Positions 2,404-8,981 of a stretch of DNA of 12,844 nt are shown piece after piece. The position numbers and the translations under genes were made by a program. Under the pieces are notes generated by a model. The model ran no database searches. It saw nothing but the letters and a program-made list of their open reading frames with translations, and was not told where the DNA came from. This stretch comes from a virus, in the UHGV virus genome UHGV-0098265; one strand, given 5' to 3'. Within the stretch, counting starts at the first letter, position 1; the number at the start of each line of letters is the position of its first letter.

Positions 2404-3338
2404 AAATCCACCCCGTAAATCCAGTCAGTGTTTGTCAGGTCGAGTTTTGGTTTTCCAGCTGTCACGCCAGCCTGTTGCTTGTTACGGTTGATTTCGAGCT
2501 GGGTCCACTTGTCGCGGAGTTTGGCCGGACTTAGCACGTTACCGGACCAGAAGTTGTCCTGGCATGCCCAGCGGAACAGCACGCACATGTCGCGGTGGTT
2601 ACGTCCGTCACGTTCACGCATCAGGCGGATATCGTTAGCCCACCCTGCAAAATTCGGTTTTCTGGCTGATGGTGCGATGGTCTTCACCATGTCAAACATC
2701 CACTCTGCGGCGGTCAGGTCTTCTGCTGTTCCCCACTTGCTGCCGCTCTGAATTGCAGCATCCGGTTTAACCACAGAAAGATCGTTTTCTGGCTGGTCAG
2801 AGGATTCGCCAGAATTCTCGGACGAATAATCTTTTCTTTTTTCTTTTGTAATAGTGTCTTTTGTGTCCCCCTGTTTTGAGGGATAGCAATCCCCTAATTT
2901 GAGGGATGTTTTATCCCTCGTTTTAGGGGATTTTCCCTCGTTTTGAGGGATGTCCCTCATTTTAGGGGAACCTCCCTCGTTTTGAGGGATGCACCATTCT
3001 GAGATGTTTTTATTTGGTCCAAACATGCCGCCTTGCTGCTTGATAATATTCATTCTGACGAGTTCTAACTTGGCTTCATTGCACCGTTTGACAGGTAACT
3101 TTGTAATCTCGCTAAGTTGAGAATCGGTGATTCTGTCCATTGGTTTATTCCACCCATAGGTTTTACGCAGAATGGCAAGCAGCACTTTAAACTGTCGCTT
3201 GGTCAGATCTGCGCCTGAATAAGCCTCAATCAGCATATTTGATAGTCTGGCGTAACCATCATCGAGATCTGCCACATTACGCTCCTGTTTGGCAAAGTTA
3301 CCTCTGCAGAAGTTGAGTATTTTTGCTGTATTTGTCAT
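2400..3338 (-). CDS. O: Replication initiator protein O, lambda-like, with a 13-aa insertion in the iteron-encoded linker
   Basis: 312 aa versus 299 aa in lambda. N- and C-terminal sequences match lambda O as recalled; the ori iterons are embedded in the coding sequence. Confidence 0.95.
   Translation of the reverse strand: MTNTAKILNFCRGNFAKQERNVADLDDGYARLSNMLIEAYSGADLTKRQFKVLLAILRKTYGWNKPMDRITDSQLSEITKLPVKRCNEAKLELVRMNIIKQQGGMFGPNKNISEWCIPQNEGGSPKMRDIPQNEGKSPKTRDKTSLKLGDCYPSKQGDTKDTITKEKRKDYSSENSGESSDQPENDLSVVKPDAAIQSGSKWGTAEDLTAAEWMFDMVKTIAPSARKPNFAGWANDIRLMRERDGRNHRDMCVLFRWACQDNFWSGNVLSPAKLRDKWTQLEINRNKQQAGVTAGKPKLDLTNTDWIYGVDL
2866..2990. repeat. Lambda-type replication origin: six iterons (about 18-19 bp palindromic TCCCTC-N-GAGGGA units), with an adjacent AT-rich unwinding region at about 2813-2862
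   Basis: Six tandem units read directly in the sequence (for example tccccctgttttgaggga, atcccctaatttgagggat, atccctcgttttaggggat, tccctcgttttgagggat, tccctcattttaggggaa, tccctcgttttgagggat), next to an A/T-rich tract cttttcttttttcttttgtaatagtg. Confidence 0.9.
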
Positions 3339-4079: not shown

Positions 4080-4787
4080 ATGGTTCAGAATGAAAAAGTG
4101 CGCAAAGAATTCGCCCAGCGGCTAGCGCAAGCCTGTAAAGAAGCTGGTCTTGATGAACATGGTAGGGGAATGGCTATAGCCCGTGCCCTTTCTCTTTCGT
4201 CCAAAGGCGTTAGCAAATGGTTTAATGCTGAGTCTTTACCGCGTCAGGAAAAAATGAATGCGCTTGCGAAATTTCTAAACGTTGATGTTGTTTGGCTTCA
4301 GCACGGCACTTCGTTAAATGGAGCGAATGATGAAGATACTCTTTCATTTGTTGGCAAATTAAAAAAAGGGTTAGTGCGCGTGGTTGGTGAGGCAATTCTT
4401 GGTGTTGATGGTGCCATCGAGATGACCGAAGAACGCGATGGGTGGCTCAAGATTTATAGCGATGATCCAGATGCCTTTGGTCTTCGTGTGAAAGGAGACA
4501 GCATGTGGCCCAGAATAAAATCAGGAGAATATGTACTCATTGAGCCTAACACCAAAGTATTCCCGGGTGATGAGGTGTTTGTCAGAACCATCGAAGGACA
4601 CAACATGATCAAGATTCTTGGCTATGACAGAGATGGAGAATACCAATTTACAAGCATCAACCAGGACCACAGACCAATAACGTTGCCTTATCATCAAGTA
4701 GCAAAGGTGGAGTATGTGGCTGGTATTCTGAAGCAATCTCGCCATCTGGATGACATCGAGGCAAGGGAGTGGCTGAGAAATTATTAA
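4080..4787 (+). CDS. cI: CI-type prophage repressor (N-terminal HTH, C-terminal S24/LexA-like autopeptidase domain); non-lambda immunity specificity
   Basis: 235 aa. C-terminal GDSMWPRI motif (Ser nucleophile) plus a downstream Lys, typical of RecA-stimulated self-cleaving repressors; divergent from cro. Confidence 0.9.
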   Translation: MVQNEKVRKEFAQRLAQACKEAGLDEHGRGMAIARALSLSSKGVSKWFNAESLPRQEKMNALAKFLNVDVVWLQHGTSLNGANDEDTLSFVGKLKKGLVRVVGEAILGVDGAIEMTEERDGWLKIYSDDPDAFGLRVKGDSMWPRIKSGEYVLIEPNTKVFPGDEVFVRTIEGHNMIKILGYDRDGEYQFTSINQDHRPITLPYHQVAKVEYVAGILKQSRHLDDIEAREWLRNY

Positions 4788-6053: not shown

Positions 6054-6362
6054 ATGACGGTAATCGTGTACGGGAAATCAACATTTACAGGAAATGCCAA
6101 AACTCGCCGTCATGAGCGGCGCAGAAAGCTGGCTATCGAGCGTGATGCTATATGCAACATCATCGATTCGATCTTCGGTACAGACAGTGATGAACCTGTT
6201 CAGAAAGAACCGAGAAAGCGTTTAAGCCTTTCTGAAAAAGCAATATCACTCGGCAACATTCGTAACCAAAATACCGACGAATGCAATGGAAGCATTTGCC
6301 TGCCAAACGTAGCCATCTACGTGGCAGGCTATCGGAAATCAAAACAACTGACGGCGAGGTAA
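6054..6362 (+). CDS. N: N-type transcription antiterminator with a P22-type arginine-rich motif
   Basis: 102 aa. N-terminal GNAKTRRHERRRKLAIERD matches the P22 N boxB-binding peptide as recalled. GAGGA Shine-Dalgarno 7 nt upstream; positioned downstream of PL/nutL. Confidence 0.85.
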   Translation: MTVIVYGKSTFTGNAKTRRHERRRKLAIERDAICNIIDSIFGTDSDEPVQKEPRKRLSLSEKAISLGNIRNQNTDECNGSICLPNVAIYVAGYRKSKQLTAR

Positions 6363-6659: not shown

Positions 6660-6824
6660 TTACTTACTGTTTATTCTGATAATCTCATCAAGAATTTTTT
6701 CATAAACAACTGTGCTTGGCTTTCCGTCAATGCCAGGGGCAAGATTACCGGCTCTGATAAGCTCAACAATAATCTGTTGAGCGGCTTCGTGTGGGTTGGT
6801 TTTGGGATTAACAATATCTGTCAT
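6660..6824 (-). CDS. Hypothetical 54-aa protein (MTDIVNPKTNPHEAAQQIIVELIRAG...), antisense to the PL operon
   Basis: Internal ATG at 6824 within track ORF 6660..6929, preceded by GAAGGG; two 14-bp direct repeats lie immediately upstream; its stop abuts the stop of the convergent plus-strand gene. Confidence 0.5.
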   Translation of the reverse strand: MTDIVNPKTNPHEAAQQIIVELIRAGNLAPGIDGKPSTVVYEKILDEIIRINSK

Positions 6825-6837
6825 AACAAAGCCCTTC

Positions 6838-6886
6838 TTTTGACTGTGGAAACAACAGTCTACCCATTTCCTTTGACTGTGGAAAG
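6838..6886. repeat. Two direct repeats of TTTGACTGTGGAAA spaced 35 bp apart, upstream of the minus-strand 54-aa gene
   Basis: Identical 14-mers at 6838-6851 and 6873-6886 read directly; each contains a TTGACT hexamer. Confidence 0.55.
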
Positions 6887-7075
6887 TGGAGGAACCACCG
6901 AGCCCGATGTGGTTAAAAGACAGGCACAATCTTTACTACCGCAATCCACTATTTAAGGTGATATACGGAAGAACAAGCAAACAAGATTCTCGTAGAACTA
7001 CTGCAAAAAGCCAGCAATGGAATAGACGCGGCTGTTTCATTTAGCCAGGCACAGATTCCTGATGTTGTTCATCAG

Positions 7076-7414
7076 TTGCTGCTATGGAATATGGTTGACA
7101 GTCTGATTAAAACATTAATAGCCATTCTAACAATCCCACTGGTTTTCTGGTTTATGAAGAAGCAGTGCCAAAGAGTTGAGACAGGTGAAATCGGTGATGA
7201 AGGATATTCATGGGAGAAAGGAAATCCCAAATACAGGCCGACAATGGTTTGGGATAGCAAAGGTGATATTAATCTTCTTATCGTGCCATTGGTTGGAGTT
7301 TTGACTCTGTGGGGGGATTTTATTATTGGTGCAGTAACCAATATGACTTGGTTAAAAATTTGGCTGGCCCCAAAGCTTTACCTTATCGAATATGCAGCAT
7401 CATTGGTTAATTAA
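7076..7414 (+). CDS. Small membrane protein with two hydrophobic segments (possible superinfection-exclusion SieB/Esc-like); start uncertain (TTG 7076, ATG 7091, or upstream)
   Basis: Hydrophobic segments LIKTLIAILTIPLVFWFM and INLLIVPLVGVLTLWGDFIIGAV. The frame is open back to 6962 with AAGGTG upstream but no canonical start codon. Confidence 0.55.
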   Translation: MLLWNMVDSLIKTLIAILTIPLVFWFMKKQCQRVETGEIGDEGYSWEKGNPKYRPTMVWDSKGDINLLIVPLVGVLTLWGDFIIGAVTNMTWLKIWLAPKLYLIEYAASLVN

Positions 7415-7417
7415 TTT

Positions 7418-7445
7418 CAGGCCGCATAATCGGCCTTTATTTTTA
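7418..7445 (+). terminator. Intrinsic terminator (tL-type, expected to be overridden by N)
   Basis: AGGCCG-cataat-CGGCCT hairpin followed by TTATTTTT. Confidence 0.65.
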
Positions 7446-7454
7446 AGGAGACAT

Positions 7455-7697
7455 ATGAAAATCAAAACTATGGGCGCAAGCCCATTAAGTGGTCGTATTT
7501 TTCAAGGAACATTAAACACTGAAAAAGGAATGTGGGTGGGAAAGAAAGAAGATGTAACCGAACAGGCAGTTAAGGCAGTAGCTGAACACATGATGATAAA
7601 AGACCAGAAATATGCATACGGAACGAAGGATGGCAAATGGCTGATAATAAGCCATCAAGTGGTTGATAAATTACCAGAAGAGTTTGTTGCTGGTTAA
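7455..7697 (+). CDS. Hypothetical 80-aa protein
   Basis: ATG preceded by AAGGAG at 5-nt spacing. The track ORF 7392..7697 upstream extension overlaps the terminator and was not used. Confidence 0.65.
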   Translation: MKIKTMGASPLSGRIFQGTLNTEKGMWVGKKEDVTEQAVKAVAEHMMIKDQKYAYGTKDGKWLIISHQVVDKLPEEFVAG

Positions 7698-8791: not shown

Positions 8792-8816
8792 GTTATGTAT
8801 AAATAAGGAGCACACC

Positions 8817-8981
8817 ATGCAATATGCCATTGCAGGGTGGCCTGTTGCTGGCTGCCCTTCCGAATCTTTACTTGAACGAATCACCCGTAAATTACGTGAC
8901 GGATGGAAACGCCTTATCGACATACTTAATCAGCCAGGAGTCCCAAAAAATGGATCAAACACTTATGGCTATCCAGACTAA
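8817..8981 (+). CDS. cIII: CIII (FtsH/HflB inhibitor that stabilises CII), lambda-identical
   Basis: 54 aa, [60 protein letters not shown] Shine-Dalgarno. Absent from the ORF track because it is short. Confidence 0.9.
   Translation: MQYAIAGWPVAGCPSESLLERITRKLRDGWKRLIDILNQPGVPKNGSNTYGYPD

Follow-up and report, generated by a model that had tools for sequence, protein, structure and literature searches.

The stretch of viral DNA analysed here (UHGV virus genome UHGV-0098265, 12,844 nt, in the following called the window) contains a plus-strand reading frame for a hydrophobic protein, which is preceded by a Shine-Dalgarno sequence and carries ACG at the position where a start codon would be expected. 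This raises the question whether the start codon of the gene was lost, whether ACG acts as a weak start in its own right, or whether only a shorter product is made from a start further downstream. Based on the comparison with relatives, the loss of the start codon probably represents a recent null or ~100-fold knock-down allele that has undergone no further decay yet. A single T-to-C transition at 6966 changed ATG to ACG in the phage lineage of the window.

Genomic context of the locus

The window comprises the early region of a 933W-like lambdoid E. coli prophage, and for 70% of its length it is ~97% identical to 933W. The minus strand encodes ninB, ren, P, O, cII and cro. On the plus strand, cI (4080-4787), N (6054-6362, with a full-length match to Pfam N_peptide) and an 87-aa ORF precede the gene under study, which is followed by a terminator (7419-7446), DUF7446, a 156-aa gene, the ea10/DUF2528 gene, cIII/kil, gam, bet and exo. 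In 933W, N is directly followed by the 156-aa gene, and therefore the gene under study belongs to an inserted accessory block. This block is located between N and the recombination genes in the early-left (pL) operon.

The terminator is the only terminator-like site found on the plus strand between 5900 and 7800. Since it follows the gene, the latter is probably transcribed on the N-independent immediate-early pL transcript, and if the terminator is the equivalent of tL1, the gene would be co-transcribed with N before antitermination. For the same reason, and because the later pL transcription is N-antiterminated, polarity effects on the downstream genes are expected to be negligible. On the plus strand upstream of the gene, no promoter-like site was found.

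The neighbourhood of the gene comprises further elements. An 18-nt direct repeat, TTCYTTTGACTGTGGAAA, occurs at 6835-6852 and 6868-6885, 33 nt apart. It is located between the gene and a small minus-strand ORF, and may bind a protein or form part of a promoter of this divergent ORF. The ORF itself (6660-6824) encodes 54 aa, or as many as 89 aa if a TTG further upstream is used, is oriented antisense in the pL operon and shows a weak match to PHROG 27767, a family without assigned function in PHROG. It occupies the place that sieB has in Salmonella phage Oslo, on the same opposite strand. The search of the whole window against Rfam resulted in the cIII thermoregulator (Lambda_thermo, 8804-8862, 88.5 bits) as the sole match, which lies elsewhere than the start of the gene and fits an intact lambda-type cIII region.

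Reading frame and start region

The features of the gene are as follows.

6955-6961, plus strand: Shine-Dalgarno sequence AAGGTGA of the ancestral start, the best 16S-tail duplex among the sites at the 5' end of the ORF
6965-6967, plus strand: former start codon, now ACG (T-to-C at 6966), ATG in relatives
6965-7414, plus strand: ORF of a phage membrane protein with two predicted transmembrane helices, 149 codons plus TAA (PHROG 3054 match, homologs, AlphaFold model)
6965-7090, plus strand: codons 1-42, conserved N-terminal helical domain, now without a canonical start (alignments, third-position variation)
7091-7414, plus strand: residual 107-aa ORF from ATG 7091, called by gene finders, probably poorly translated or untranslated
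7349-7411, plus strand: codons 129-149, conserved C-terminal helix motif (WLKIWLAPKLYLIEYAASLV-) (alignments)
7419-7446, plus strand: intrinsic terminator directly 3' of the gene, AGGCCG-loop-CGGCCT and then a T-run

In the letters of the plus strand, TGA at 6959-6961 is followed by TAT and by ACG at 6965-6967, from where the frame stays open up to TAA at 7412-7414. The translation of the 149 codons from 6965 reads YTEEQANKILVELLQKASNGIDAAVSFSQAQIPDVVHQLLLWNMVDS... The TGA that closes the frame upstream is located inside the Shine-Dalgarno sequence of the gene itself, where the match to the 16S tail reads AGGTGAT (6956-6962). As described in the original prediction, ACG occupies the expected start position, and the earliest canonical in-frame starts are TTG 7076 (codon 38) and ATG 7091 (codon 43). 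The AAGGTG motif described there is likewise present, located at 6955-6960 and not, being off by one, at 6954-6959. In the phages Gally, HF4s and Oslo the Shine-Dalgarno sequence is kept as (A/G)AGGTGA, and in Gally and HF4s the terminator at 7419-7446 is conserved as well.

The RNA around the start of the gene folds no better than shuffled sequence (z=-0.7). Together with the Rfam result, this gives no sign of a structured RNA element that compensates for the lost start. The ribosome-binding-site 10-mer AAGGTGATAT recurs exactly within the ORF at 7260-7269 (codons 99-102, K-G-D-I), followed by ATT. Since it encodes a conserved KGD motif at this point, the recurrence is probably coincidental.

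ATG as the family state and origin of the ACG allele

The homologs from Gally, HF4s and Oslo align base for base with the window from 6955 on and comprise an ATG exactly at its ACG. For Gally and HF4s, the homology starts exactly at this point, that is, at the Shine-Dalgarno sequence. All three records contain a CDS of 450 nt, whose ATG aligns with 6965-6967. The relatives thus have their ATG at the position of 6965 and do not start, as considered in the original prediction for the opposite case, at the position of 7076 or 7091 with unrelated sequence upstream.

For a start-codon scan of IMG/VR, any codon was permitted at the start position, and the 88 contigs comprised 86 with ATG, one with ACG and one with GTA. 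Both the annotated records (4/4) and the matches among JGI/ENA metagenome contigs (21/21) showed ATG throughout. Pooling of these unbiased samples results in 111 ATG among 113, with one ACG and one GTA. Considering only intact alleles, 95 out of 97 carry ATG at family position 1, the position at which the copy of the window has no canonical start. This copy is a start-deficient allele of PHROG 3054 and not a normally expressed member. Since homologs and census agree on ATG, ATG at 6965 is the ancestral state and ACG was derived from it by T-to-C at 6966. In E. coli 19AR1724 (locus L004), which carries the closest allele with ATG, the ORF deviates from that of the window at two positions only, 6966 and 7317; residue 119 is D in the copy of the window compared to G in this relative. 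The start loss by a T-to-C change, which had been proposed from the sequence of the window, is supported by these data. The additional proposal that the gene is decaying goes beyond them, as neither frameshifts or stops nor additional substitutions were found in nine independent copies with ACG.

Over 6880-7460, nine independent assemblies have the same sequence, ACG included, and for this reason the change is considered real and inherited. The carriers compared were L018 and L091-L097, originating from IMG, ENA, Logan and NCBI sources. L018, the only IMG/VR contig with ACG, shows 99.8% identity to the window over 10.6 kb, yet is a distinct sequence, and seven loci, taken from metagenome assemblies of ENA and from separate runs assembled by Logan, match the window exactly over 6880-7460. 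A difference of one base could in principle be caused by a sequencing or assembly error, with ATG as the true sequence. However, the same base was determined in at least nine independent assemblies from separate projects and pipelines (IMG UViG, ENA, Logan, NCBI draft), which leaves this explanation a negligible probability, and an error was excluded as the source of ACG.

The exact 107-aa product that gene callers predict from ATG 7091 (P0121) was found on 177 contigs and in 265 index blocks, and one of its records is NCBI KDU35411.1 from E. coli 3-073-06_S4_C1. The commonest intact alleles were found on 282 and 252 contigs, so that the ACG allele is of comparable frequency. All 177 contigs with the ACG allele are shorter than 50 kb, and the commonest intact alleles are located on contigs of megabase length. 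Among 5,426 complete E. coli genomes none contained the ACG allele, of the 200 complete E. coli genomes with the start-region 61-mer none matched the version of the window exactly, and a pattern scan of the GTDB species-representative genomes was without matches. The occurrence on short contigs only could originate from assembly breaks near the prophage, from an under-sampled host lineage or from free phage DNA.

Almost all SNPs among the ACG carriers lie at or past 7981. Furthermore, two carriers comprise other downstream modules, with DUF2528 deleted in one and a Rad52-type recombinase replacing RecT in the other. Both observations indicate that the ACG mutation arose once and that the downstream region was shuffled afterwards. 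It is also a recent mutation, since the ORF of the closest ATG allele differs at only two positions and no second lesion is present. The mutation is located on one haplotype block of ~4 kb, reaching from the immunity region to the gene, and spread with this block while the downstream modules recombined. Besides the shared SNPs, the window and L018, its closest relative, differ in a 9-base run at 599-607 near the ninB region, which lies within the overlapping minus-strand ORFs 91-654 and 624-1070.

The ACG allele is not the only defective copy of the gene. A second, independent start loss was found in L101 (IMGVR_UViG_3300029828_000288, 2494-2496, minus strand), where ATG is changed to GTA in an otherwise intact ORF of 140 codons; this change creates an out-of-frame ATG-TAG one base upstream. 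Early stops occur in the 140-aa class (L057, L079 and L105), and L073 is frameshifted. At five further loci (L025, L058, L077, L107 and L117), 5' remnants comprise the Shine-Dalgarno sequence and ~42 nt, followed by unrelated sequence, and in L077 and L117 the remnant is located ~390 bp from a complete copy. These remnants resemble junctions of recombination events within the conserved 5' end. Since remnants, early stops, a frameshift and a second start loss are common in the same samples, the loss of the gene is evidently tolerated and presumably neutral.

Conservation of the N-terminal extension and structure of the protein

The sequence between ACG and the internal starts had been described as protein-like, which is borne out by the variation among the 97 intact alleles. 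In codons 2-42, the variable sites are distributed as 8/5/21 over codon positions 1/2/3, and 16 of the 24 variable codons change only synonymously. Since third-position and synonymous variation dominates, the extension is coding sequence under purifying selection. Codons 1-42 even belong to the best conserved parts of the family. When 32 homologs with identities as low as 58% were aligned, the invariant columns were grouped in residues 1-42 and 129-147. Extending the comparison to 60 members down to ~30% identity, the invariant or nearly invariant residues are L9, F26, P32, V34, Q37, L38, L39 and W41 in the N-terminal part and I132, A135, P136, K137, L140, E142, Y143, A145 and L147 in the C-terminal part. 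The N-terminal family motif (F26, P32, V34, Q37-L38-L39, W41) is encoded at 6965-7090, upstream of any canonical start, and the C-terminal motif K-I-W-x-A-P-K-x-Y-L-x-E-Y-A-A-x-L is present at residues 131-147. Both motifs are also kept in virulent phages, namely in Justusliebigvirus muut (gp101), the N4-like Salmonella phage FSL SP-076 and a Vibrio myophage, and the conservation of the first 42 residues extends to virulent phages at an overall identity of ~30%.

The AlphaFold model of the 149-aa protein (pLDDT 87, pTM 0.65) predicts one continuous helix for residues 2-68, in which the N-terminal domain is joined to the first transmembrane helix (TM1). A poorly defined loop follows, then the second transmembrane helix (TM2) at 106-125 and C-terminal helices at 128-148. 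Hydrophobic stretches in the sequence are located at ~44-64 and 103-125. The arrangement of the family, two hydrophobic helices between conserved ends, is thus predicted for the copy of the window as well. The product would be a 149-aa inner-membrane protein in which the N-terminal helix runs on into TM1 and a variable loop leads to TM2, with a further helix at the C-terminus.

Across the family, the ends of the gene are conserved and the centre is swapped. While the first ~42 and the last ~22 codons are near-invariant, the central part with the two transmembrane helices and the loop occurs as three unalignable cassettes, resulting in proteins of 149, 140 and 121 aa. This was seen at 6965-7414 of the window, at L010, L007 and L101 and at other loci. 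On the DNA level, the N-terminal part shows 93-94% identity across the cassette classes and the C-terminal part 86-88%. The swapped centre looks like a cassette exchange by recombination in the conserved ends. The terminal helices may be the functional module, and the transmembrane hairpin may serve only as an anchor.

Consequences of the start-codon change

A product of 107-112 aa starting at TTG 7076 or ATG 7091 would retain both transmembrane helices and the conserved C-terminal helix, and ATG 7091 is the start chosen by gene callers. The original prediction compared this possibility to SieB, for whose gene Ranade and Poteete are said to have described, in 1993, an internal start that yields Esc, a shorter product in the same frame. 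For the gene studied here, the chance that such a truncated product is functional appears slim. The predicted pairing with the 16S tail amounts to +0.3 kcal/mol before TTG 7076, where no Shine-Dalgarno match is present, and to a weak -3.3 kcal/mol before ATG 7091. Of the three cassette classes, only that of 149 aa has ATG as codon 43, with TTT at this point in the class of 140 aa and GCC in that of 121 aa. As codon 38, TTG is present in 79 alleles and CTT in 18 alleles, which belong to one class. In addition, the 42 residues deleted in such a product are among the most conserved ones of the family, and in the AlphaFold model they form a continuous helix with TM1. Because of the missing N-terminal domain, the product from 7091 is expected to be non-functional.

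The comparison with SieB does not extend beyond general properties. SieB of phages P22 and lambda is also a small membrane protein encoded near N. However, Pfam SieB (PF14163) matches the SieB of Oslo (5.9e-27) and not the protein of the window, and hhalign of the family profile with Oslo SieB resulted in a probability of 0.2%, so that a relationship was rejected. In Oslo, a true sieB is located immediately upstream of the homolog on the opposite strand. Whereas sieB is transcribed against pL, the gene of the window lies on the same strand as N and the pL genes. In contrast to sieB with Esc, its internal start is not conserved and has no usable Shine-Dalgarno sequence of its own. Altogether, a SieB/Esc-like arrangement with two products is not supported.

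It remains to be considered to what extent ACG itself is used. In E. coli, 57 codons beyond the canonical three and the four best near-cognates were shown to initiate at 0.1-1% of AUG, and initiation at ACG itself was confirmed by mass spectrometry, mostly with Met (bioRxiv 10.1101/063800). Applied to the gene of the window, ACG combined with internal starts lacking a Shine-Dalgarno sequence would lead to a null or a ~100-fold knock-down of the full-length protein. A trace of the latter is possible, the Shine-Dalgarno sequence being intact.

The same residual initiation would allow a different explanation, in which ACG is a genuine weak start behind a strong Shine-Dalgarno sequence and the ~100-fold lower level was selected. 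A membrane protein expressed from the immediate-early pL transcript is possibly costly or toxic, and ACG initiates detectably in E. coli with incorporation of Met. Neither the Shine-Dalgarno sequence nor its spacing has changed, all nine copies with ACG retain a fully intact ORF, and in public data the allele is about as frequent as the commonest intact ones. Moreover, a second allele class (L101) independently lost its ATG with the ORF intact. However, the codon in L101 became GTA, which is not a near-cognate and points to inactivation rather than tuning. Since the copies with ACG represent one recent haplotype, their intact ORF is uninformative on selection, and hitchhiking with a phage or host clone that was successful can account for the frequency of the allele. 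We also know of no natural E. coli gene with an ACG start. Selection for a tuned-down expression is thus regarded as unlikely. In its most specific form, ACG would be a selected, very weak start that holds a costly immediate-early membrane protein at ~1% of the normal level, which we consider very unlikely. If true, this would provide a natural example of expression tuning through an ACG start in a bacterium or phage, and would explain both the frequency of the allele and the untouched ORF and Shine-Dalgarno sequence. The occurrence on 177 contigs could mean that the allele is not merely neutral.

The preferred reading is a recent loss of the start codon, resulting in a null or knock-down allele. 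As the copies with ACG all share one ORF sequence, a loss of function is neither supported nor refuted by their lack of further decay. The change to ACG corresponds to a textbook knockout or knock-down by point mutation, an ordinary route of loss for an accessory phage gene. In consequence, gene callers silently report a 107-aa "hypothetical protein" (177 contigs) for what is a start-deficient ORF of 149 codons.

The gene family and comparison with known systems

The protein matches PHROG 3054 with E=1.2e-62 over residues 1-148 of 149, and 516 homologs were found, nearly all of 149 aa and with 100% coverage. A profile search of 1.84 billion representative proteins extended this PHROG 3054-type family to 2,493 clusters at 50% identity (E<=1e-3), and in nearly all of the 150 best matches of the 2,493, profile position 1 falls on one of the first few residues of the matched protein. 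The members originate from temperate and virulent phages of Escherichia, Salmonella, Klebsiella, Vibrio, Pseudomonas and Rheinheimera. Searches for a known function gave no match for the protein in Pfam and NCBIfam, nothing consistent in Pfam for 60 diverse family members, no defence family in PADLOC-DB 2.0 at E<=0.1 and nothing in a profile search of PDB sequences (best E=0.71). Fold searches against PDB and BFVD resulted in no informative match for the family, and nothing specific was found in the literature on a characterised gene at this position.

The position of the gene differs between the phages. In lambdoid and P22-like phages it follows N, in an N4-like phage it belongs to the early region, where the RNA polymerase genes precede it, and in a Vibrio phage it forms a lone insert on the opposite strand between tail and head genes. 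Accordingly, the family appears to be a mobile accessory gene that is apparently expressed early. Our best guess, drawn by analogy, is an early membrane function, e.g. the exclusion of other phages. We consider that the family deserves more attention than the ACG codon, as it is large and widespread, has no Pfam entry and combines conserved helices with an exchanged transmembrane hairpin between them. The natural ACG allele and its ATG relative, which are one base apart at the start codon, would provide a ready isogenic pair for probing the role of the protein.

Among known systems, T4 Imm and P22 SieA resemble the protein in being small inner-membrane proteins of phages, and its apparently early expression and mobile accessory behaviour fit this comparison. 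It is an analogy only, as no sequence or fold similarity to these proteins was detected. The closest described counterparts are members of PHROG 3054 themselves, namely HF4s_0037 of HF4s (annotated as "TM helix-containing protein"), GALLYPH_30 of Gally and AMBK_46 of Salmonella phage Oslo. The proteins of HF4s and Gally show 95-96% identity to that of the window, and all three genes share with it their place in the early-left operon, shortly after N, and their Shine-Dalgarno sequence. In this comparison, only the copy of the window starts with ACG, while the others carry ATG.

With respect to the start codon, the gene resembles infC (AUU) and pcnB (AUU), where a one-base neighbour of AUG is likewise located behind a good Shine-Dalgarno sequence. 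In infC, the unusual start codon is conserved and regulatory. In contrast, the ACG of the gene described here is derived and confined to one recent haplotype, while the other sampled members of the family carry ATG, with the exception of L101 (GTA).
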